64,000 nucleotides of DNA, taken from contig CM074515.1 of the NCBI GenBank assembly GCA_037379345.1, forward strand, positions 15,252,001 through 15,316,000, read 5' to 3'. How positions within the stretch are numbered: the stretch's first letter is position 1; every line of letters begins with the position of its first letter. Of this stretch, positions 5,831 to 60,200 are shown piece by piece. The position numbers and the translations under genes are program-made. Below the pieces are notes generated by a model. It was given only the letters and a program-made list of their open reading frames with translations. It did no database searches and was not told the origin of the DNA. This DNA comes from Perna viridis (Eukaryota).

Positions 5831-6024
5831 TGTATTTATACTGACACACTTATGAAACAACAGATGTATATGAAACACAACTTATATTAAGATGATTTTT
5901 GTATTATTACCAGTACCAGTCTAAAGCGAAAAAACATAAGATCTTAATAATCTGTTACTTAATTCTATCAACGGAGTGTTGGTAATATGATAACCAAACG
6001 ATATCGTAGTCTGTTACTTGTTCA

Positions 6025-6205
6025 TCGTGTAAAAGTTTTCCTGTCCTCTTTCGTCCACCCGGACTTGATCTTTAATGAGCAACTCGGCAGGTGTTTCTAG
6101 AAAAGCAGAGGACGGTTACCCTACCTGGTCCATGCTCCCAGTTTTTAGTGGAGTCTGAGTTACTCATTTGCTTTTCCCTTGGTTCGTTCCCTTGATAGAT
6201 CTTTA
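6025..6205 (+). mobile_element. Naiad-type PLE 3'-UTR fragment
   Basis: Matches the repeated ccggacttga...atgagcaactcggc...ggttcccttgat 3' region of the other copies. Confidence 0.8.
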
Positions 6206-6339: not shown

Positions 6340-7172
6340 AGATTCCTTCACTCTTATGAGGCTGACTTTATATCTGATCTGATTCAAAAGAATGAACATC
6401 GTTTGGTTAGATCCTTTTATCTCAGTTTCCGCTATACAGATGACATATTATCATTAAACAATCCTAGTTTCGGGGATTTGATACATCTACCCCAAAAGAC
6501 CTTGAGATAAAGGATACAACAGACGCTATCAAGCCAGCCTCAAATATTAACTTACACTTAGAGAAATCGATGGTTAAGGAAAACTATTGACAAAACTATA
6601 CGACAAACGCGGGGACCTTTCATTCTGTATTGTCAAATTTCATTTCGTCTGTGGCAACATCCATTCAGCACCTGCGTATGGAGTTTTCATATCACAACTC
6701 ATACGTTATACCAGAGCTTGCCGTAAATAAGCAGCCTTTTTGTATCGCGCTAGACATCTTACAATTAGGCTTCTGGAACAGGGTTATGTTACTCCAAAAT
6801 TGATGTCATTATTACAGAAGTTTTGTGGTCGTCATCATGAACTCGTGGACCGTAACGTTGTATCCATCTGCACCATGAAAACTGATTTGTTCAGCGTGTC
6901 ATAGTTTCCCTTTCCTCTTTCGTCTACCCCGGACTGGACTTTTTATGAGCAATTCGGCGGGTGTTTCTAGAAAAGCAGAGGACTTTTACCCTACTGGTTC
7001 ACCTGTTCCATGCTCCCAGTTTTTAGTACAGTCCGAGTTGTTCATTTTTGTTACTTTGTATGTATTATTTTGGTTATTTCATGTTCTTTGTTGTGTGTGT
7101 CCATGTCTGGTCCTGATCCCTGGATTACATTCTTTTGATTACCGCTATAACCTTGGTTCCCTTGATTATTCT
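6340..7172 (+). mobile_element. 5'-truncated Naiad-type Penelope-like element (degenerate RT C-terminus plus 3' UTR)
   Basis: FLHSYEADFI...FRYTDDILSLNNPSF, then a frameshifted thumb region. The shared 3' UTR ends cttggttcccttgattattct. Confidence 0.85.
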
Positions 7173-7525
7173 TAAGTAAAAGGAAAATAGAAATTCGCTG
7201 CAAAGACTTTTTTAAACATTTTTTTGCGTTTAGAGAGATAGTATTTAAAAAAAAACATAATTTCCTTAGCACTGGGCTTATAAATGATTTTTCTTTTGTA
7301 GTGATAAACATCTACATCTGAAACCTTTTCTAATTGTACCAAGAAACAAATTCTTACATAATAAAAGCATATAAACAGGAATTTAAATCATATAAATTAA
7401 ATGAACATTAATTCAGGTGGTGTCAATTAATTAAAGCTTTAAATTTGTTTTTCCTGTTCTTTCCTTTTCAGTCATATTGCAATTAAGACAATTTATGAAA
7501 AGAATAATTTACAAATAATTGCAAT

Positions 7526-8268
7526 GCTTCCGCTATATAGATGACGTATTATCTTTAAACAATCCGAATTTCGGGGATTTGATACATCGGATATACCCAA
7601 AAGAACTTGAGATAAAGGATACTACAGACACTGTAAAGTCAGCCTCATATCTTGACCTACACTTAGAAATCGATGGCAAAGGAAAACTATTGACCAAACT
7701 TTACGATAAACGTGATGACTTTTCATTCAGAATTGTCAACTTTCCTTTCATCTGTGGCAACATCCCTTCAGCTCCTTCGTATGGAGTGTTCATATCACAA
7801 CTCATACGTTATGCAAGAGCTTGCCGAAACTGCGCAGACTTTTTGTATCGCGCTAGCACTCTAACAAATAGGCTTCTGGAACAGGGTTATGTTGCTACAA
7901 GATTGAAGTCATCACTACAGAAGTTTTATGGTCGTCATCATGAACTCGTGGATCGTTATGGTGTATCCATCAGCACCATGAAAACTGATTTATTCAACGG
8001 GTCATAGTTTTCCTTTCCTCGTTTGTCTACCCCGGACTTGACTATTTATGAGCAACTCGGCAGAGGACGCTTACCCTACCGGTGGACCTGGTCCACGCTC
8101 CCAGTTTTTAGTGGAGTCCGGATTGCTCATTTACTTTTGTTACTTTGTATGTATGATTTTAGTTACTTTGTGTTGTTTGTTGTGTATGTCTGTTTTTAAT
8201 GTCTGGTCTTTGTCCCTGGATTACATTCTTTTGATTACCGGTATAACCTTGGTTCCCTTGATTACTTT
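7526..8268 (+). mobile_element. 5'-truncated Naiad-type PLE with an intact RT catalytic-to-thumb frame
   Basis: ORF 7519-8007: FRYIDDVL, SASYLDL, TKLYDKRDDF, NFP, SQLIRYARAC, KFYGRH. The stop comes right after the thumb with no C-terminal GIY-YIG, as in N-terminal-EN PLEs. The 3' UTR follows. Confidence 0.9.
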
Positions 8269-8287: not shown

Positions 8288-9400
8288 AGGTGGTGTCCAA
8301 CCCGAACCTTCAGGTGGTGTCAAACCCGAACCTTCAGATGGTATCAAACTCAAATTCTCAGGTGGTGTGAAACCCGAACCTTCAAACTGGTGTCAAACCC
8401 GGACCTTCACAAGGTGTCAAACCTGAACCTTCAGAATGGTGTCAAACCAGAAACTTCATGTGTTGTCAAACCCGAACCTTCAGACTGGTGTCAAACCAGA
8501 AACTTCAGGTGTTGTCAAACCGAACCTTCAGGAGGTGTCAAATCCAAACCTTCAGGTGGGTGATGTCAAACCTAAACCTTTAGACCGGTGTCTAACCCAA
8601 ACCTTCAGATCGGTGTCAAAACCGAAACTTCTTGTGGTGTGAAACTTTCATTATGCCGCAAAAGAAGGTATGAATAGAATGATGTCAAACACGAAACTTC
8701 ATAAAGAATTGGTAGGATGGTATCAAACCCAGACCTTCATATTGTCAAAATAGAACGAATGAGTAGGATGGAATAAAAAACCGAATCTTCATAAAGGATA
8801 AAATAGATGGTGTCAAACCCGAACGTTCTAAAGAATGACTAGGATGGTATCAAACCCGAATCTTCATAAAGGATGAAATAGATTGTGTCAAATCCGAATA
8901 TTCTTAAGAATGAGTAGATGGTATCAAACCCGAATCTTCATAAATGATGAAATAGATGGTGTAAAATCCAAATATTCATTTTCGAACCTTCATAAAGGAT
9001 AAGTAGGGTGGTGTCAAACCCGTACTTTCATATTGTTAAAATGTACCGGATGAGTAGGATGGTATTCTACCCGAATTTCATAAATGATAAGTAGAGTGGT
9101 GTCAAACCCGAACCTTCATATTGTTAAAATGGAAAGAATGAGTAGGATGGTGTCGAACTCGAACCTTCATAAAGGATGAACAAGATGGTGTCAAACACAA
9201 ACATTCATATTGTCAAAATAGAACAAAAGGATGAGTCGGATGGTGTCAAACCTTATTCTTCCTATTGTTAAATGTACCGGAAGCTTCATAAAGGGTAAGT
9301 AGGATGGTATCAAACTTGAACCTTCATAAAGAATGAACAAGATGGTGTCAAACTCGAACCTTCATCTTGTTAAAATGTACCGAAAGAGTAGGATGGAACT
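8288..9400. repeat. Compound minisatellite with core GGTGTCAAACCCGAACCTTCA
   Basis: About 15 near-contiguous 24-25-bp units (8288-8650). The same core then recurs separated by related linkers (taaaggatgagtaggat, or tattgttaaaatg...gagtaggat) to ~9400. Confidence 0.9.
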
Positions 9401-10589: not shown

Positions 10590-10870
10590 AATCAAAAGGA
10601 TGAATTAAAACCAAAGGATGAACATTAGACAGGAAAAACACACACAATCCGGACTCCATTGAACATTGGGTGCATTGGCCAGGTGCAAAGTAAAGGAAGC
10701 GTTTACTGCTTTTCTGGAAACACCCGGCAAGTTGCTAATAGAATGTCACGTCCGCGGTAGACGAATTAGTAAAGGAAATCTATGACAGGACGGTTCTTAT
10801 GGCGCGGATGGATACATCATAATAATCAACGGTGACGAAAATAAATTGTAGTGATAACTTCAACCTGACA
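10590..10870 (-). mobile_element. Old, diverged Naiad-type PLE 3' fragment
   Basis: ggactcca...ccaggtgc...ctgcttttctggaaacacccg...gttgct...ggaaatctatgac...gatggatacatca matches the reverse complement of the 3' UTR and thumb. Confidence 0.65.
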
Positions 10871-16299: not shown

Positions 16300-18720
16300 C
16301 TTACATTGCTCACATAATCTCATCTAGATTCACATATTTAGATGCATTTTGAGTAAACCAATATTCAGAACAACCACATTCATTTAGAGTATATCCATTA
16401 AGAATGGTACATATTTCTGTTATGCATGGTGCATAACAATTTATGCAAAATGGATGAAATCCAATCTTGCTTACTGCACATGAATCTTATATATATATCA
16501 ATAGGAAAGAGTAATCAAGGGAACCAAGGTTAAAGCGGTAATCAAAAGAATGCAACTCGGTGGGTGTTACTAGAAAAGCAGGAGACGCTTATCTAAACGG
16601 TGCAACTGGATTATGCTCCCAGATTTTAGTGGAGTCCGAGTTGCTAATTTACTTTTTTACTTTGTATGTATCAGTTTGGTTAGTTTATGTTCTTTGTTGT
16701 ATTAGTCTGTTTTCCATGTGTGGACTTTGTCCCTGGATTATATTCTTTTGATTTCCGATGGAATCTTGGTTCTCTTTATTATTCCTTTACAACCGTATAA
16801 AATATAGGTGCTACCATTGTGTCAACATATATAATTGCAAGTCAATAGGTAATCCTGAACTTCTTCATTTTCTACCTTGTTCTTACGGTTTATCCTGGTA
16901 ATTTTTAAATGAACCAATATACATGAGTATTATACCTAAACAAGCAAATGCATCAACAATTTTCAAATACTCCCCATTCAGCTTTGAAACAGGTTTATCG
17001 GGATACTTACGTTTTCTTAATATAACAGCATTAATTTATAGTTTCCATGTTTTACCATATAAATACATTGAATTAAGTGCAGATTGTTATTCAGTATCAG
17101 CATAGATACAATCTTAAATAAACAGAAATTCCACCTGCATCAAAGCATCTGAACAGCATTATAAATATTAAATATATGATAACCTGTTATATTGATTAGA
17201 TATAAACTGATCTAAATAATTAAGTAACAATAAAAAGTGCAGGAGACATGTTTTCTCCCTGTCTAATACCAACATTACTTTGGAAATAATCTGACACTTT
17301 TTACTACCCTGTCGTATACAAGATTTATCATTACCTTACATTGCATGTACAGTAGTAAACATTTTATCATCAATACATTTTGGCAGTAACTTATTGCATA
17401 AAACTGTTTTATTTATGGAATCGAAAACCTAACGATAATCAATAAAGGCACAAAACAATGATTTGTTCTTGAGGAAGTACAAATCTATTGATCATTTAAG
17501 ATTCAATATACGATCGTTCATTCCACATTTCTTTCTTAAACCTACCTGCTTTTCACAGAGAACATTCATATTTTCAAGATAAAAATTAAGTGTGTTATCT
17601 AGTACAGCAGTAAAAAGTGTCGATATAACAACTAAGTATAGTAAGCCCTGTAATTTTAATTGCATTTCTAACCTCTTGTTCAGTGATAACAGCATTAACA
17701 TTATTATTTAGATGAGTAACAGTATTTCTACCAAACTCTACAAAATCACAATCATCATCCTCTTATGCATTGTTTAACTTCTTAAAATGCTATAATAAAA
17801 CCATTTAGTCGACATTTTCAAGTACTTTATTCTTGACCTATTTAACAACGACAGTAAGACATTCTGACTTGGATTTGGGACCCAAGTATAACATTTGTCT
17901 TGGTGATATTAAATTTTTATTTTACAATCTGCTTTAAACTATAATTTATTAACCTTACATTTTGTTTTTTCTACAACTTTTCTCAGAAAAAATTGTTTTC
18001 GTAACAAATTACTATCAGTAAAAGCATGAATAATAATATCATTACAAAACTCTAAATGGGAATTTCCAATTCCATCGAAAAAAAAATTAAATAATTTTAC
18101 AATGTATGAAGATTATCCAAAAGAGATAAAACAATTTATAGAATGCGGTACATTAACGAAAGGTTACAAAGTGTCAAATATATCAATTTTGAGAACAGTA
18201 TTTGAGTTTTAATAATCACATAAAATTGATTTCCCATTAGCCAATTGAAATTAATAACCAGAGGCACTGCTTGCTTGTCTGTCTTTCCAGAATCATGGTA
18301 CTCAAACATTTAATAAGGCGGTTTATAAAAGGTGTAAACTTGCCCAAAACCAGATTATTGAGTATAACCTGTTCAAAAATAAGATACATTCCTTATAATT
18401 AAATTTCTAATAAACGACAGTCTAGATATTAAAAATACTCTATACGCTCATAATACCTAATTATATAATATAATATATGATATTACCCAAAACGGACACT
18501 TGGTTTTAACACATTACAAATAACATTCATGTTGTTAACCAAAACATCTGCAATTTACATATCTTCAAAAAATGCATAACTTAACTGGAAAAAGTGACTC
18601 ATAAAATAATGACAATATGAAATACAATCACTAATAATAATCTGCATACTCAATCATGGGGGACCTAGGCAGCCATGAAAACTCCATTTTATTAGGGAAG
18701 AGGAAACATGTGTCCGAATC
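16300..18720 (-). mobile_element. Degenerate non-LTR (L2/CR1-group) retrotransposon RT pseudogene; boundaries approximate
   Basis: Minus-strand remnants EKQVGLRK, CAFIDYR*VFDSIN, VGIRQGENMSPALF and a YAD-type motif near 17100. Multiple stops and frameshifts. Interrupted by a Naiad fragment at 16508-16785. Confidence 0.7.
16508..16785 (+). mobile_element. Naiad-type PLE 3' fragment preceded by an inverted copy of its own terminus
   Basis: 16508-16552 is the reverse complement of the 3' end. 16552-16785 is the forward 3' UTR. Confidence 0.8.
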
Positions 18721-19889: not shown

Positions 19890-20140
19890 ACTTTCAAGTT
19901 TTGATTTTTCTTGATTTCACTTGTTACATATTTGTTCATTTTAACGAAAAAGGGGTTGTTATTAAGACGTGGGTTAAAATAAACATCGTACGTATTAAAA
20001 TCAAGATTGTTTTACATAAGTATGTAGTTAATTAGTTAAATAACTGTGAGTATGTGTTAGTTTTAACAATCAAGCCCCAAACGTTATTCTTTTTTTTTGG
20101 AGAAGCACTGTTTTCAAAAAATTTATCTTTTTTTTTACAG

Positions 20141-21076
20141 AAACAAGTGAAATTTATCTGTGGTGACAACAGCAGTAATTCTGACAACAAAGCATGTTTA
20201 CCACTACGTAATAACAATTTGGAAGTTGCTTTACAAACACTGGATGAGAGGAGAATGGAACAACCGTCACTTCGTTCAACGAAACGGGCTTCTTCTGAAT
20301 CGAGCCTAATACGTCTACGTAGGAGAGATAAACTTCCATTAACAAAGGCATATGATTTTCCATCTGTTGAAAATGCAGTAAAACATTTTAAAAGAAAACT
20401 AGATGGAGAGGGATTAGTTGCTGTATCCGTTCCTTTAAATCACAGATCTAGTTTTTTAGATATTGGTGATGAACATCGATTGAAATATCATCATCGAAGT
20501 GTAGACGAAATAGAGAAAATGTCATACAATTCAGAACGATTGAGAACAGTGTTAGACGAGGAGATAGATTTGGACTATATTGACATCGTTTACGAGGCCA
20601 ACAAGCCAACAAAACAGAGATACATGTCGTTATCATGTGCACCCCCAATTAAGCCGAATTACTTTCCACGAACTATAAAGCTCCAACAGCGATCAGATTC
20701 AAGAGAATCACGTGGTAGAGGTAGGGATGATAACGAGGCAATGTTGAATAGTTTTCAAGGAGAGTGTAGTAATGAAACTAAAATGAAAAGTGAACATGTT
20801 AGCAGGCGAGGTTTGGATGCTCTTGGGTTGTACAAAAATAACACACCATTGAATTCAAGTATGACAAAATTGATCGAAACACGCGGTAGCGATAGGTCAT
20901 TCCGATCAGAACATATACCTGATCATCCAAATAAAGCTCACAGACTGTCGTATTTGAGAAAGACAAATGGCATTATAGGGGCTGTAAATAGAGCAAATAC
21001 TAGGGAAATGCAAAGAGTTCTCAGATACAGTAAATATGTGAACGAGGCATTCAGGGTAAACGGTAATAACGTATAG
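20141..21076 (+). CDS. Uncharacterised protein, large terminal coding exon (paralogue A)
   Basis: Long stop-free frame in AT-rich DNA. Polypyrimidine/CAG acceptor ends at 20140. First internal ATG is at 20255 (273 aa); phase-0 upstream exon candidates at 14238-14303 and 16061-16087. Clear protein similarity to 27987-28874. Confidence 0.8.
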   Translation, partial: KQVKFICGDNSSNSDNKACLPLRNNNLEVALQTLDERRMEQPSLRSTKRASSESSLIRLRRRDKLPLTKAYDFPSVENAVKHFKRKLDGEGLVAVSVPLNHRSSFLDIGDEHRLKYHHRSVDEIEKMSYNSERLRTVLDEEIDLDYIDIVYEANKPTKQRYMSLSCAPPIKPNYFPRTIKLQQRSDSRESRGRGRDDNEAMLNSFQGECSNETKMKSEHVSRRGLDALGLYKNNTPLNSSMTKLIETRGSDRSFRSEHIPDHPNKAHRLSYLRKTNGIIGAVNRANTREMQRVLRYSKYVNEAFRVNGNNV

Positions 21077-23314: not shown

Positions 23315-24030
23315 ATATCGGGGATTTGATACATCGCATCTACCCCAAACAACTTGAGATACTACAGACATTGTGAAGTCATCCTCATATATTGACGTAC
23401 ACTTAGAGATCGATGGTAATGGAAAACTGTTTACAAAACTATACGACGAACGCGTTGACTTTTCATCCCGTATTGTCAACTTTCCTTTCATCTGTTGCAA
23501 CAAGCCCTCTGCACCTGCGTTTGGAGTTTTCAAATCACATCTCAAACGTTATTCAAAAGCTTGTTGTAACTACACAGACTACTTGTATCGCGCTAGACTT
23601 CTTGCAATTAGGCTTCTGGAACAGGGTTATGTTGCTATAAGATTAAAGTCATCACTACAGAAGTTTTATGGTCGTCATTATGAACTAGTCGATCATTATG
23701 GTGTATCCATTGGACACAATGTGAACTAATTTTTTACCATGTCATAGTTTTCCTTTCCTCTTTTGTCTACCCTGGACTTGACTTTATATGAGCAAATTGG
23801 CGGGTGTTTCTAGAAAAGCAGAGGACGCTTACCCTACCGGTACACGTTGTCCATGCTTCCAGTAAATTTTAGTGGAGTCCGAGTTGCTCATTTTTTTTGT
23901 TACTTTGTATGCATCATTTTGGTTATTTAATGTTCTTTGTTGTGTGGGTCTGGTTTCCATATCTGGTCTTCGTCCCTTGATTATATTCTTCTGATTTCCG
24001 CTAGAATCTTGGTTCCCTTAATTTCTCTTT
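23315..24030 (+). mobile_element. Younger Naiad-type PLE (thumb plus 3' UTR) inserted in or after the older copy
   Basis: ORF 23373-23729 is very similar to 7519-8007. Complete 3' UTR ending ggttcccttaatttctct. Confidence 0.88.
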
Positions 24031-42204: not shown

Positions 42205-43833
42205 TTAGAAGAAGAACATTATACATTGGAATATAGAATTTCCATTCTTATTAATATCAAAGTACAATTTCTTTGTATCTTCAGGATCTTCCCATGCATA
42301 TACATCCAAGAATTCACCTTCTAAAGCTTCACCATAGTAATGCAATTGAACACACGACAGACCATTTTTATAGTTTTCTTCAAAATGTTTAAGCGTTCCC
42401 TTTTTACTGCAGAGATGTGCACAATCAATAGCATACCTTGCATAACTTGTCCAGTTAGCATGATTGTAAGCATCTGTAAACGTCCATGTTACCTGAAATC
42501 GTTGACAGCCTATATTTGGTGGTCGTTCAAATTTATCAATTTTAAGTGATGGCATTCCTCTGGCGGATTCTGCATATTTAGTTTTCCACCATTCGGGTAG
42601 AGCTGAAGGTTTCCGTGTATTCGGATCGATATAGACTACTTGGTTAACATTTGTCATGATTTCTTCATCACTTGATTCCAGACAGACGGACGTATGGGCA
42701 TTTAAGGATGTGTTTCCGATGTAACCACCCTTCACTTTCACCAACATTGGTTCATTAATGTTTGATAGATCATATAACGGTTTGAAAAACTTTAATTGGC
42801 CTGTGATTAAAAACGTCATATGGTTTTTAGTGAGTTCCTGAAAATCACGGAATGTTTCCCCAGATTCGTTCATTTTTGCATGATGGATAAATATTCTAGT
42901 ACTGGAACAGAGGGACATCAATTCCCATAGTTTAGGCTTTCCTGAAAATAATTTGTAAAATGTGGTAAACAATAATATTCCAATAATAATCAAGACAAAT
43001 CGGTAAGGACATCAGTTGTAAAGAAAAACTAACATTAAAGTACACAAGAAACAAGTACAAGTCTGATTTGCCTTTTAGTTGCGAATCAATGGTCTTTCGT
43101 GGAATTATCCATAAATATAAAGCTTAACAGAAGTATCATTACGATCCTTTATCTGTATGAACACTCAATTGATTAACAAAAAGAACGCACATTGTTTCCG
43201 ATAATTTAATATGCAATATGCCAAAAAGAAAAAAAATGCTTCGTGGGGTACAGCTTCTGTTCGGGCATATACATATAGACACTAATTTCAAGTGAAAAAC
43301 GTTTCCAAAATCTCATTGCGATAGCATATACAGATGCCAAAAATATTTAATACTTACAATTAAACATCACTGTCTGAAATCGGACGAGATATATAATCAC
43401 GTTATAAAATCGGTCATAAGCAAGTTATACAAAGTTTTATAAATAGTTCGATTTGCTGTCTTGTTTGGAGATGATTGTATCATTTGGTCCTTAATTTTAA
43501 TACGATTTGGACCACGACCAACAAAACTAATCCTTTTTTTACGGTGTATAACGATTACATTAATATGTACATGTATATATTCGCTGCAACATGGGTTTGC
43601 TGCAACTATCAAATATACAGCCTATAGTCTTAAATATACACAGACTACCCGGGCTGCATTTGATTGTGGGATTAAGAAGCTGAACATTACGCTCATCAAA
43701 AGTGACTAATAAAAGTACCATTTTTATCAAAGTCTCTAAAACTGAGTCCAGGGTGTCTCATTGTGGCCTTAACAGTATTGTTGTCTGCAGATAATAACTT
43801 CCAGTCTTTCCGCTCAATGAATTCCGGAGGCAT
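42205..43833 (-). CDS. Double-hotdog-fold thioesterase-like protein (acyl-ACP thioesterase/4HBT-like), 283 aa
   Basis: Coding exons 43833-43719 (MPPEF...PGLSFRDFDKN) and 42941-42205 (GKPKLWEL...QCIMFFF*), phase-1 GT-AG intron, 852 nt. Acceptor at 43838 implies a 5' UTR exon further upstream. Motifs IGNTS, VYIDPNTRKPSALP, TDAYNHANWTSY, YYGEALEGE. AATAAA (minus strand) at 42059-42064. Confidence 0.85.
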
Positions 43834-47513: not shown

Positions 47514-47985
47514 AAGAGTAATCAAGGGAACCTAGGTTATAGCAGTAATCAAAAGAATGTAATCCAGGGACAAAGACCAGACATGGAGAACAGACATACA
47601 CAACAAAGAACACAAAGTAACTAAAACCATACATACAAAGTAACAAAAGCAAATGAACAACTAGGACTCCACTAAAAACTGGGAGCATGGACCAGGTGCA
47701 CCGGTAGGGTAAGTGTCCTCTGCTTTTCTAGAAACACCCGCCGAGTTGCTCATAAAAAGTCAAGTCCAGGGTAGACAAACGAGGATAGGAAAACTATGAC
47801 CCGTTGAATAAATCAGTTTTCATAGTGCAGATGGATACACCATAACGATCCACGAGTTCATGATGACGACCATAAAACTTCTGTAGTGATGACTTCAATA
47901 CCCTGTTCCAGAAGCCTATTTGTTAGAGTTCTAGCGCGATACAAAAAGTCTGCGTAGTTTCGGCAAGCTCTGGCATAACGTATGA
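47514..47985 (-). mobile_element. Naiad-type PLE thumb plus complete 3' UTR, inverted
   Basis: Reverse complement of the region from ..IRYARAC to the terminal gattactct. Confidence 0.9.
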
Positions 47986-48331: not shown

Positions 48332-49075
48332 AATAATCCCTTTTGGGATTCAGTGTCCGGAGCTATTTTCTGATGTGGCCGCCCACTGAATCCCTTACCA
48401 ACGCCGCAAATTTCATTCTGGAAAATTGGAAAATTTTACCAGACCTCGGAACTGAACGTTTTACATCACATTCTTCACTGGGCACACTCAAACAAGTAGG
48501 GGCTCGATTTTATATACATTTTTCTCTTTGAATCATCTTGGTTTATGATGTTTACTGCCATATTTCAGCAGATACAGCCAAAAGTTTTAGCGATATCGTT
48601 TCGTTTCAATCGGGCGCCGCCATTTTTTGTTTCTATAAGGCAGGTGATCTACTTTCAATACAAACAAAAAATGGCTGCGCTCGATTGAAACGAAACGATA
48701 TCACTAAAACTTTTGGCTGTATCTGCTGAAATATGGCAATAAACATCATTGAAAGTAGATCACCTGCCTTATATAAACAAAAAATGGCGGCGCCCGATTG
48801 AAACGAAACGATATCACAAAAACTTTTGGCTGCATCAGCTGAAATATGGCAATTAACATCATAAACCAAGATGATTCAAAGAGAAAAATGTATATAAAAT
48901 CGAGCCCCTACCTTGTTTGAGTGTGCCCAGTGAAGAATGTGATGTAAAACGTTCTGTTTCGAGGTCTGGTAAAATTTTCCAATTTTCCAGAATGAAATTT
49001 GCGGCGTTGATAAGGGATTCAGTGAGCGCCACATCAGAAAATAGCTCCGGACACTGAATCCCAAAAGGGATTATT
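48332..49075. repeat. ~740-bp foldback palindrome (arms ~330 bp)
   Basis: 48332-48659 is the near-exact reverse complement of 48748-49075. The ~90-bp spacer is itself a third copy of part of the arm. Confidence 0.92.
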
Positions 49076-51502: not shown

Positions 51503-52000
51503 AAGAGTAATCAAGGGAACCAAGATTTGAGCGGTAATAAAAAATATTTCAAGGACAAAAAACCAGTCAAAGAAAACGGAAAACATCGCGTCAGCACAAA
51601 AATACGTACAAAGAAAAAATAAATGAGCAACCCTAACTCCACTAAAATCAGGGAGCATGGACCAGGTGTACCGGTAGGGTAAGCACCTGCTTTTCTAGAA
51701 TGATAGTAAAATGTAATGTATTGATAGACGAAAAAGCAAAGGATTACTACTACACTGTGAATAGTTCGGTTCTTATGGTGCAGATGGATACATCATAACA
51801 TTCCACAAGTTCAAGAATACGACCATAAAACTTTTGTAGCGATGGCTTTATCTTGTAGCAACATAAGCCTGTTCCAAAAGCCAAAGCATGGTACAAAAAA
51901 AGTCATCGTACGTTTGGCAAGCTCTGGCAAAACATATGAGTTGTGATACGAAAACTACACGTAGGTGCTAAAGGGATGTTGCCATAGATGAAGGAAAGTT
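51503..52000 (-). mobile_element. Diverged Naiad-type PLE 3' fragment, inverted
   Basis: aagagtaatcaagggaacc...atgagcaac...gggagcatggaccaggtg...gaccataaaactt...ggcaagctctggc. Confidence 0.8.
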
Positions 52001-52090
52001 GTAAATAAGGAATGAGAAGTCATTCAAGAAGAAATTCACGTTATAAAATATCTTTAAAATCAATTTTATCAGGACTCTAGTAGTCACTAG

Positions 52091-52480: not shown

Positions 52481-53618
52481 AAACAAGAGGCTCCCAGCAT
52501 CCTGAATTGTTCACCGTGTTCAATTTTTGCCCTTCAAATGCAATAACTCTAACAAGGAATCGTCGTACAACCTTGATGACCTTATCTTTTACCAATCAAT
52601 AGTTATGTTCTCATCTATCATAGTTTTCAAGATATTGGCCAAAAACTGCAAAAAAAAAGTTTTCGTCTTTCAAAGACAATGACTCTAGCAAGGAGTCAAC
52701 CAACAACTTCAACCTAAAAGACTTGTAGGCTTTATCATAAAAATCATTTCATCAATTGAAGTTTTTTTTCTACCTATCATACTTTTCTAGACAAATCGCA
52801 GAAACTGCAAAAACTATCAAATTTTAGCCTTTTAAGAGTAATAACTCTAACAAGGGGTTGTCAGACAATTTAACTTGAAGAAAACTTTTTTAGTACTTAT
52901 CATAAAGACTGTTTCATCAATTGAATATCTATATTATAGTTTTTGAGATATTGGCTGAAAACTGCAAAGAACATGGTATTTTGCATTTCAAGGGCAATAA
53001 CTCTAACAAGGAGTTGTCAGACAATTTTGACATTAGTAGGCCTTATCATTAAGACCATTTCTTCAATTGCAATTTTTTTGTTATTGGAGTTTTCAAGACT
53101 CTCCTGAAAAACTGTAAAAACTGTCATTTTTCATGTTTGAAGGGCAATAAGTCTTAACAAGGAGTTGTCGTAAAATTTTGATTTAAGATTTTGTAAGATT
53201 GAAATTTTTTTTCTTCCTATTATGGGTTTCTAGATATTGGCTAAAAATTGTAAAAATGTCATTTTTTTGCCTTTCAAAGGCAATAACTCTTAACAAATAG
53301 TTGTCCAACAATTTTCACCCAAATAATACTTTTGTAGGACTTATCATAAATATCATTTAGTCAATTGAAAGTTTTCTTCTATCTATTATAGTTTTCAAGA
53401 TATTGGCTGAAAAAGCTACAAATACTCATTTTTAGCCTTTCAAGGGCAATAACTCTAACAAGCAGTCGTCTGAAAATTTTGACTTGATTAAGACTTGTAG
53501 GATTTGTTATAAGGATTATTACTTCAATCGAAAGTTATGTTCTATCTATTGTAGTCGATGATAGACGCCAAGTAATGACAAAAGCTCACACTGCCTTTAA
53601 GCTCAGGTGAGCTAAAAA
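52481..53618 (-). mobile_element. Helentron-associated non-autonomous element (HINE/DINE-1-like) carrying ~7 copies of a ~150-bp satellite monomer
   Basis: One end has the subterminal inverted repeat aaagctcac...aggtgagctaaaaa; the other end reads aaacaagaggc...ttgttcacc. Internal tandem units gggcaataactctaacaaggagt...caattgaa...tattatagttttcaagatattggc. Confidence 0.75.
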
Positions 53619-57200: not shown

Positions 57201-60200
57201 AATTAAGAACCTTGCCATAGTCAAAGCAACATAGTCTGACTTAATGAGAACTGATGTTTTTTGGAAATATTTTAATCAAGTTTAACATACTGAGTGACAA
57301 TAAAGGTAGAAACTACTTAACTTTCAGGAAAATTAAAATCAACATAACTAAAGATTTAAACAATGAAAATTTACACCTAACTATCCATTTTATTAAAAAA
57401 TATGACTGCTATAAATACTTTAATGCATCTAAGTAATAATCTCAAAACATAAAGGTCAAAAATTTAATCTCGAACTTTACCTTTATACAGTACACTAATA
57501 CTTCATGTCCAGCACTCTCACAGAACCAGTCCACTGATGGTATGGAATGAGGCAAGATATGACCAAGTATTGTAAATGATCTTTTCACTATTAGTTTGTA
57601 ATGTTTAAACTTTGAACACAATTCTAGGCAATGTTTACAAATTCCAAGGCTAAATTCTTTCATATTTTGTGAAGGTTCAAAGGTCATATTGGCCAACATT
57701 CCAAGACAGGCTTCTACTAATTCGATACTGACTGGTTCTTTTAACTTTTCCTTATGCACAGCCTGAAATCAAAATAATAATTAATGTAATTACAGGGCCA
57801 ACATCTGTTAGCATTCTAATTTATAGTATAAAAGCATCAAATGTGTCCTGTTAGTGATTTGAGAACCAATAAAAGTAAAGAGGTTGGAAATTGAATTAAC
57901 TTTATATGGTGATCTGGGGTGAAAAACTCCTATGGGGAATATTTTGTAATACTGTAAACAGACTAATTTTTGCTAGCGATTTATTTTCGCTCATCTCACC
58001 AGCACCAACCTTTCACGGAATTAAATCTCTGCAAAAATGCTGATCTTAATAATTTTCATTGTAAAAATATCTAATTTCATTTATAATTGTGAAAATATGT
58101 TGTTGCGAACTTGCACATCACTCTGATTGGAATTAATGTAGTCACAAAAAATAAGTAGATTTACAGTATAATTCAACTAGGCTGTTTTGACTAATTTTAT
58201 TACTCTCCTCACTTAAATACAATTGGCATTTAAATCATAAACAAGACTTTCTAAAAGACTTAAAGGTTTTAATAGAAAGTTTGCAAAAACGTTTGCCTTT
58301 TATTCTGCCTTATCACCCATTATTTGTGAACCTTTACTTATGATGTGCTTGTTGATCATGGCAGAAATCCTCTTACAAAGTAACAAAATTGTGCCAAGAT
58401 TACATGGACTGGTTAATGGATCAACTAACATTCTCATTTCTTCACATTTAATTTACAGACTTTTTAAATCAGAAAAAACATGCAAATTTTTTTTTCATAG
58501 TAAAGTCAGCCATTTAATTTTACTTTGAAACCAGTCTAAACCAATCCCCTTACATACTATATAATGTGTTCAGTTTGGACAGGTGTTTGGTTTTTCCAGG
58601 TTCAAAATACATTTCAATTGATATAAAAACTGTTAAAAGTATCTTGTTTAGACAGGTTTACAGATAATATCAGAGGTTAACAGATCATTCAGTTTGGTTT
58701 AGACAGGTTAACAGATTATCAGAGGTTAACATATCATTCAGAGTTTGGTTTAGACAGTTAACAGATTACATCAGAGGTTAACAGATCATTCTGAGTTTGG
58801 TTTAGACAGATTAATGGATTATATCAGAGGTTAACAGATCATTCACAGTTTGGTTTAGACAGGTTAACAGATTACATCAGAGGTTAACAGATCATTCTGA
58901 GTTTGGTTTAGACAGGTTAACAGATTATATCAGAGGTTAACACATTGTTCAGTTTTCTTTAGACAGGTTTACAGATCATTCAGAGATAGGTTTTGACAGT
59001 TTTACATATCGTTCAGATTTTTCTTTAGACAGGTTAACATACCAGTATTATTCAGAGTTCAGTTTAGATAGGTCAACTGTATAGCTATGTCTATAAATGG
59101 GTCCAAATCATGACCTTTTTTTGCATTTTTAGCTAGTTCTTTACAATAGTATTATTACTTACTAATAAATCGATGACTGTTTTCCAAAATTCTTTTCTGT
59201 TTGTTATTTTATTTCTGATATGTGGATCTAAACATAGATTCATAATGGTTGTGATACATGAAGGGACAACATTCAAATGACTTGATCCATCTTTCTGAAA
59301 TTCAAGAAAAATTAACTTATAGGTTAAAATGCAACTTAGACGGCACACACATACCAAGTCAATAATAATGCTTTAGACAAATCTGTGGATGAGTCATAAG
59401 TTTGACAAATTGAAATCAAAATTTCATTATGATTTTCTAACATAGAGGAACTTCGAGGATTCCAAAGTAGAAATATCAATCTGCTGCATTTGTTGATCTC
59501 CCTTTTCTACCATATGCAATGAATACCATTTTATTAAGCTTGTTTAAATTTTCTGCATATTAAGTGTTTTTTTTTCTTTAAAACGAAACCAAATAGCAAA
59601 GAAAAGGAAAAGAACAATGGAGGAATATACCCTTAAATTACTTACAGAAAACATGATTTTACAAGGTCTACCAAGTCGAAATTGGCAAAATTGGAAGTAA
59701 GTATAAATAAACAGTAAGAAAAGAATCATAATAGTAAAATCCAGATTAGAATCAGCAAAATTCCACTTTATGGAAAAATAAATTGAAGTGATGAAGTCAT
59801 GTTGTGTTTGTGCTGAAATAGAAATGTGCTTACTGTCCTGCTTTCGGTCATGTAACCAACATGAGTTCAAGTTATTTCCAGGAGTATGTTAAATTACATT
59901 ACAGGTAGAATTTTGTTCCAGCATCAGGTATACAAAATGTTATATCTCAAATGTATTTACCGGTGCTTTCCTTTCTCCAGTTCAGTCCACTTGGACCACA
60001 GATTCATGTCCCATTACTGGTTTGTCTCAAGACAACTTACCATGTGGACCAGAAGTAGAATTAGTTGGTCCATACCGGATAATGGAAAACAAGCTATGTC
60101 TATGAACAAATAGAATTGAGGTTGTTTGTAAATAATTAAATCTGAATTCTATAAACATCTTCTCTTCCGATTACATACCAATAGTGTTTCAAAAGAAGGA

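Follow-up and report, generated by a model that had tools for sequence, protein, structure and literature searches.

A conserved two-palindrome RNA motif in the 3' untranslated regions of Naiad retrotransposons, predicted to dimerize and probably self-cleaving

A 64,000-nt stretch of the Perna viridis genome (GCA_037379345.1, contig CM074515.1, positions 15,252,001–15,316,000 of the forward strand; here called the window) contains repeated copies of an RNA motif of about 100 nt in the 3' untranslated region (UTR) of Naiad retrotransposons, a clade of Penelope-like elements (PLEs). The copy described in detail here lies at 23788–23891 (+). The motif is real, conserved and structurally well supported, and was not found in print. 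Its pairing pattern argues strongly for homodimerization of the sense RNA by way of two intermolecular helices, in each of which a palindrome (c or g) pairs with its twin in a second copy. By analogy with the ribozymes of other PLEs, the predicted dimer is likely to belong to an undescribed class of self-cleaving ribozymes.

From 5' to 3' the motif consists of one strand of the closing helix P1, strand b, palindrome c, two purines followed by CAG, strands e and f, palindrome g, strands h and i, the hairpin P6 and the second strand of P1. In the named copy (all features on the + strand) the 5' strand of P1, whose sequence varies across families, occupies 23788–23800 and pairs with 23879–23891. 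The conserved G-rich strand b (23801–23806) pairs with strand h (23843–23848, with two changes in this copy) to form the core helix P2. Palindrome c (23807–23816) is 10 nt long and palindrome g (23835–23842) 6–8 nt, and they are predicted to form the first and second intermolecular helices, respectively. Between them lies a conserved junction (23817–23834) made up of the two purines, CAG (23819–23821), e (23822–23826) and f (23827–23834), which holds a pistol-like purine-G-[pseudoknot]-G-C sub-motif. Strand i (23849–23853), which completes the segment 23843–23853 with h, forms the pseudoknot with e, and the variable hairpin P6 follows at 23855–23878.

These assignments were compared across 25 families, comprising 24 metagenome loci (among the matches listed) and the intact P. 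viridis copy L031, all picked by hand as intact; rates in this set are overstated because decayed and GC-rich matches were dropped. The core helix contains one G-U pair, which is replaced by G-C in three of 24, and 19 of the 25 constrained folds place P1 directly next to the core helix. In all 25 families b is also complementary to the 3' part of f, a count partly dictated by the search pattern, and strand b may therefore switch partners between h and f. The central helix (CGGGUG/CACCUG) and the distal hairpin (GCUCC/GGAGU) of the initial annotation both hold across families, as does its crossing GGAC/GUCC pseudoknot, which is 5 bp long rather than 4. Its perfect 13-bp closing stem is seen in L031 but is mismatched in the named copy, only about two to three pairs of its AAGC/GCUU helix are conserved, and its ACC/GGU helix has no loop and is in fact a palindrome. 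The segments that it had drawn as loops are two covarying palindromes implying a dimer, which it had missed.

Covariation, which the initial annotation had proposed as a check, was found and was strong for the 5-bp pseudoknot: e and i formed 119 of 125 pairs, using 24 different sequence pairs. Palindrome c, in a fixed 10-nt register, formed 109 of 125 self-pairs compared with 57 ± 6 in swaps between families; for its innermost two pairs the count was 43 of 50 compared with 22. For g, with the register chosen per family, the two innermost pairs were formed in 50 of 50 cases compared with 23 in swaps. The pseudoknot, inner c and inner g counts each exceeded 10,000 of 10,000 cross-family swaps, and a MAFFT-based count gave 92 % of cells paired, compared with 70 % when shuffled and 32–46 % when slid. 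Across the families these pairings were kept by 24 distinct sequences of c and 15 of g. Departures from Watson–Crick pairing comprised 22 G-U (eight of them representing one common terminal pair) and five A-C, the excess of G-U indicating the sense RNA strand. Folding energy could not be used to read the strand, since the L031 motif folded better than 200 of 200 shuffles (z-score −3.3) and its reverse strand scored alike (z −3.7).

Two RNA copies are inferred to pair because a hairpin cannot form the covarying innermost pairs. Hairpins formed by the palindromes were accordingly rejected, as they need no central pairs, and the best g hairpins cost +0.8 to +6.0 kcal/mol. Median homoduplex energies were −13.0 kcal/mol for c and −9.0 kcal/mol for g, compared with about −2 across families; pairing of c with g (median −1.6 kcal/mol) was also rejected. 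Since each strand exits its intermolecular helix at the far end, the junction strand of one copy would reach the partner's core helix.

The pseudoknot and the two palindromes were absent from the search pattern and were tested in all listed clusters. The metagenome scan gave at least 122 matches in 38 clusters, 81 of them in one cluster. Among the matches listed, all three features were present in 10 of 11 clusters chosen solely by an upstream Naiad reverse transcriptase (RT), in 12 of 17 AT-rich clusters without an RT and in none of 10 GC-rich clusters. By comparison, they were present in one of 29 pattern matches from prokaryote genomes (Fisher p 1.4e-7 against the RT-linked clusters), and this lone positive was a 407-bp contig resembling a Naiad 3' end. 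This bacterial record (L399:1-407) is, by eye, near-identical to a published pearl-oyster Naiad consensus and is likely to be contamination. Among the matches listed, identity between the motif-linked RTs falls as low as 33–35 %, with the core unchanged.

The core was also found in 12 of the 54 Naiad consensus sequences in the file of PMC8557442, by a text search read by eye and sensitive to line breaks. The carriers were two Clytia, three oyster, one Tegillarca, one Pinctada and four hemichordate entries, plus a fish entry listed last; for two of the 12 the host was assigned from file order. All 12 keep both palindromes and at least four of the five pseudoknot pairs (by eye), and in one the final C of f is altered. 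In several Clytia Naiads the 3' UTR contains a third conserved, GC-rich motif, located 5' of the window-type one (PMC8557442 File S5, near parts 9–10). Viral contigs gave neither an RT relative nor a motif match. No link to another element type was found for the copies without an RT among the matches listed, and truncation or long UTRs explain these equally well. Two loci are possible non-autonomous or non-Naiad carriers: in L048 (235–910) an intact motif lies downstream of a C2H2-finger open reading frame (ORF) fragment and lacks a Naiad RT within 1.2 kb, and L099 (24–345 and 1023–1308) has a direct repeat of about 1 kb with the 3' part of the motif.

In the 723-Mb P. viridis genome the core pattern gave 8,375 exact matches and a reversed control pattern none. 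The host element is a PLE of the Naiad clade. Naiad hallmarks are an N-terminal GIY-YIG, CxC and DKA motifs and a C-terminal RT (Craig et al., 2021, PMC8557442). Translation of a near full-length copy revealed, by eye, a GIY-YIG-type segment N-terminal to the RT, CxC and DKA motifs precede the C-terminal RT in the L031 ORF, and the pseudo-long terminal repeats (pLTRs) are present. Pfam barely detected the Naiad RT, and a genome search with a distant RT gave matches that mostly coincided with the main family. Older window-type motif families with other palindromes and pseudoknots occur in the same genome (L382–L386, L243 and L261).

The motif of L031 begins 40 nt past the RT stop codon. Of 171 alignments in an 864-kb sample, 110 stopped within the final 10 nt of the reference, and the single commonest 3' end base (88 of 171) lay 137 nt past the motif; most copies carry three further T residues beyond it. 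The tandem (pLTR) junction gave 195 matches in the genome and was mapped in 75 of 77 insertions examined. At these junctions the sequence continues into the next unit, whose 5' UTR folds as a hairpin (z −3.0). A hairpin just 3' of the RT start site at a tandem junction (L298:1505-1575) is a candidate RT-binding element; published Naiads, whether or not they carry the window motif, show the same sequence at their 5' ends when inspected by eye. The layout of the 3' end agrees with an internal RT start of the type described for PAc, a Poseidon element, in which the start lies downstream of the hammerhead (PMC11167929). Since the cDNA start lies about 140 nt downstream, the motif corresponds to the slot occupied by hammerheads in other PLEs, in line with the initial annotation, and not to the RT start site. 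The whole upstream motif copy is retained in 37 of the 75 mapped junction-bearing insertions, and two same-sense copies are present in many full-length insertions.

Two head-to-tail arrays were observed. One (L372–L379, G000:C3, ~46.03–46.08 Mb) has 17 motif-bearing units of 3,409 bp, those compared being 99.85–100 % alike with a broken ORF, and the other (L380–L381, G000:C5, ~25.03 Mb) has four units of 2,943 bp. The 17-unit array was rejected as proof of rolling-circle copying; later amplification of DNA fits, because the units have the same broken ORF and the last unit differs.

In published mytilid and clam Naiads the window motif was absent from the 3' ends shown, and another two-palindrome RNA was found there. 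An older Naiad family of the P. viridis genome (L436–L447, L168, L172, L180 and L198) gave 18 matches to a twister-like RNA in which two palindromes replace P1 and which lies ~130–145 nt before the 3' end; a Naiad RT was present upstream in two of 12 loci. By eye this RNA matches the P4/L4/T1/T2 layout given in PMC5408937, a likeness unscored by Rfam. The clam-type pattern of the twister-like motif gave no match in the genome. The RT fragments of the twister-type family were 39–48 % identical to the main motif-bearing group and 22–25 % identical to two distant motif-bearing RTs, and in a 14-row tree they grouped with the main group with support of 100. The content of the slot has thus apparently been swapped, since the twister-type RTs group inside the motif-bearing range.

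That the dimer is probably a ribozyme is suggested by analogy with the PLE hammerheads, which are reported to cleave as dimers joined by palindromes, with weak activity in vitro (PMC4209133, PMC6765202), and no hammerhead core, twister core or Rfam ribozyme match was found in the whole 3.4-kb unit. This contextual argument also draws on the pistol-like junction and on the apparent exchange, in the same slot, with a palindrome-armed twister-like RNA. In the proposed mechanism each 10-nt palindrome would pair with its twin and each 6–8-nt palindrome with its own, and the junction strand would dock on the partner's core helix. Cutting would be restricted to transcripts with two copies (pLTR-ORF-pLTR or tandem arrays), as has been proposed for PLE hammerheads, and could release a unit-length RNA able to circularize and then be copied from the internal start site. 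More speculatively, the G after the pseudoknot strand might act as general base, by analogy with G40 of pistol. The full version of this proposal is tentative, its chances being put slightly below even: a new ribozyme class that would act solely as a domain-swapped homodimer with two intermolecular helices, spread with Naiads from cnidarians to deuterostomes, interchangeable in its slot with palindrome-armed twisters and hammerheads, and cutting solely two-ended transcripts.

Several observations weigh against a conserved, self-cleaving dimer. The upstream pLTR 5' ends (75) showed no peak in the motif but a smooth spread, with 12 of them inside the motif and at most three within 3 nt, and the 5' ends of ordinary copies were also scattered. 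No known catalytic core was matched in full. Inserted copies showed no clear purifying selection (substitutions 0.070 in the motif compared with 0.079–0.093); as they decay about neutrally, constraint would act on the source elements. Pairs changed on both sides numbered 13 compared with 11.6 in shuffles, which they did not exceed (115 of 500). The invariance of core letters in the metagenome is circular, the letters having been preset by the search pattern, so that its independent backing is limited to two sources, the family in the window and the consensus sequences in print (read by eye). Finally, the twister-type RTs are represented in the tree by two decayed fragments, both with long branches. 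The silent genomic ends neither refute nor support cleavage, because the active PAc hammerhead is reported to be equally silent, leaving no trace in RNA ends and needing protein (PMC11167929). A cut site at the first C of strand h, indicated by two pLTR starts, was rejected when the 75 further pLTRs proved smooth, and a concentration of deletions in the motif was rejected because they were not enriched there.

The same dimer evidence would be used in full by a non-catalytic module, in which the palindromes clamp the 5' and 3' pLTR copies, or two transcripts, for the strand transfer that rebuilds the pLTR, and the Naiad protein, with a PLE relative predicted to be dimeric, binds the conserved core. 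The RT reads through the motif without a break, and PAc insertion in vitro needs no hammerhead cleavage and involves a protein modelled as a dimer (PMC11167929). A protein-bound site would, however, be expected to drift with its protein, whereas the core is unchanged at 33–35 % RT identity; in closer relatives it is replaced by the twister-like RNA, and a separate hairpin occupies the RT start site. This account is considered unlikely, but it deserves serious weight. Docking of the RT at its start site, suggested in the initial annotation, is weakened in the same way, as the start lies ~140 nt downstream beside this separate hairpin, the sequence of which also occurs (by eye) in Naiads lacking the motif.

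The remaining explanations are less probable still. An element protecting Naiad RNA or promoting its translation, such as an exonuclease block or triple helix, would suit a compact pseudoknot beside a three-way junction in a UTR; it leaves the two covarying palindromes unexplained and 5' ends do not pile up at the 5' edge of the motif, making it improbable. Slightly more doubtful is a highly rearranged representative of an established class, either pistol or hepatitis delta virus (HDV)-like. The stack of core helix, pseudoknot and hairpin resembles P1–P1.1–P4 of HDV, but the HDV J4/2 segment is missing and there was no Rfam match at E up to 10. The purine-G-[pseudoknot strand]-G-C arrangement resembles P32-G33 and G40-C41 of pistol (PMC6795133), from which the motif departs in having 5 bp rather than 6, U for G42, a partner strand outside a hairpin loop and, in the covarying model, no 2-nt junction between the flanking stems. 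The palindromes would be typical of double-stranded DNA sites for a dimeric protein (an endonuclease or transcription factor), but the 24 c and 15 g variants among 25 families, the sense-strand excess of G-U and their embedding in covarying RNA-type helices make this the most far-fetched of the explanations.

Pairing of an RNA with its twin by means of two distinct palindromes would be architecturally unusual and would provide a natural two-copy switch. If the ribozyme reading is correct, the element would possess a built-in counter, cutting solely transcripts with two element ends. The reported success of Naiads without canonical hammerheads had suggested that a ribozyme is dispensable in PLEs; if it is true that unrelated dimer folds of the same design keep replacing each other in the slot, the function is likely to be required. 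The novelty lies in the fold, and the proposed role parallels that of PLE hammerheads.

The window itself contains nine motif copies, as determined by BLAST, nhmmer and a covariance model. All eight copies of the initial annotation were located where it had placed them, and a ninth, more diverged copy was added at 10640–10739 (−). All are 3' portions of 5'-truncated copies of one Naiad family, so that recurrence in the window reflects transposon copy number alone. The named copy is decayed by alignment and fold, with P1 mismatched, two changes in the core helix and a fold z of −2.1; its host at 23315–24027 (+) is a 5'-truncated Naiad with the RT C-terminus and the 3' UTR to the fixed 3' end. 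The other forward-strand copies are at 6075–6167 (8-nt deletion; element 6018–6175), 6945–7045 (element 6342–7171), 8048–8130 (18-nt deletion; element 7528–8266, RT frame 7519–8007), 16548–16648 (element 16552–16784, preceded by a 47-nt inverted 3' end) and 31004–31095 (9-nt deletion; element 30727–31230). On the reverse strand, the copy at 47653–47753 (element 47516–47985) had the top score of the window and a fold z of just −1.1 compared with shuffles, and that at 51623–51716 (element 51505–52023) is diverged. The window also contains a 750-bp self-inverted (palindromic) repeat at 48332–49075, tandem repeat blocks at 8290–9396, 52540–53555 and 58646–59039, and long open frames, probably host exons, at 20036–21076 (+), 27750–28874 (+) and 42205–43011 (−), of which the first two have a short similar segment in common and the third is thioesterase-like by eye.

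Comparison with known RNA classes gave no Rfam 15 match in the window at the gathering threshold, and merely sub-threshold unrelated matches in 11 homolog loci (E up to 10) and one 3.4-kb unit, in line with the novelty proposed initially. The hammerhead core (CUGANGA with GAAA) was present in none of the 25 families, and CUGANGA was absent from the whole 3.4-kb unit, as were a twister P4/L4 core with T1/T2 pseudoknots and any Rfam twister match. Twister-sister, which cleaves in an internal loop, is described without a pseudoknot, unlike the window motif with its strongly covarying one. HDV-like ribozymes possess a J4/2 strand that carries the catalytic C and lies between P4 and the closing P2 strand, and, before the P1 3' strand, a P3 hairpin with a 7–8-nt L3. 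The motif resembles them in that its core helix is followed directly by the pseudoknot strand and a hairpin. The partial HDV likeness noted initially is not supported: the pseudoknot strand adjoins the core helix without a spacer in all aligned families, leaving no P4/J4-2 segment with a catalytic C, and the site of P3 and L3 is occupied by a loopless palindrome.

In pistol, P32-G33 and G40-C41 flank the pseudoknot strand, G33 pairing with C41 (PMC6795133). The corresponding purine-G and G-C are present in all families here, being fixed by the search pattern, and the spacing from palindrome c to the pistol-like G is 4 nt in 21 of 25. A purine-G before and a G-C after a pseudoknot strand between stems is what the two have in common (Harris et al., 2015, PMC4604425; PMC6795133). 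The pistol pseudoknot has 6 bp and pairs with the P1 hairpin loop, compared with 5 bp and a partner in a three-way junction here, U is found at the place of G42, and the 2-nt P3/P2 cleavage junction is absent in the covarying model but could arise if b pairs only partly with f. Strand order also differs, and pistol belongs to bacteria and phages, compared with an animal retrotransposon and a predicted dimer here.

In the full-text literature, a scope outside which lay subscription journals, Lunse et al. (2017), Repbase, Dfam and bioRxiv supplements, no description of the motif was found, and four short motifs from its core matched no paper. Term searches of a 2026 retrozyme preprint, a twister survey and a permutation paper gave no mention of it, and those of a 2026 ribozyme-discovery preprint, whose ~150 proposed classes may be listed in supplements, found neither PLEs nor palindromes. 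The motif does lie in the consensus file of PMC8557442, unmentioned in that paper's passages on hammerheads, which report that Naiads have no canonical hammerheads and that some have hammerhead cores.

The fold probably represents an undescribed class, as full membership fails for hammerhead, HDV, twister, twister-sister and pistol. The hammerheads of PLEs share with it the kind of element, the slot upstream of the RT start and palindromes that need a second copy, but have one palindromic stem III, compared with two palindromes, a pseudoknot and no hammerhead core in the window motif. The twister-like RNA of sister Naiads, of type-P5 layout, has none of its L4/T1/T2 arrangement (twister features from PMC5408937) in common with the window motif, but occupies the same slot with the same two-palindrome design.
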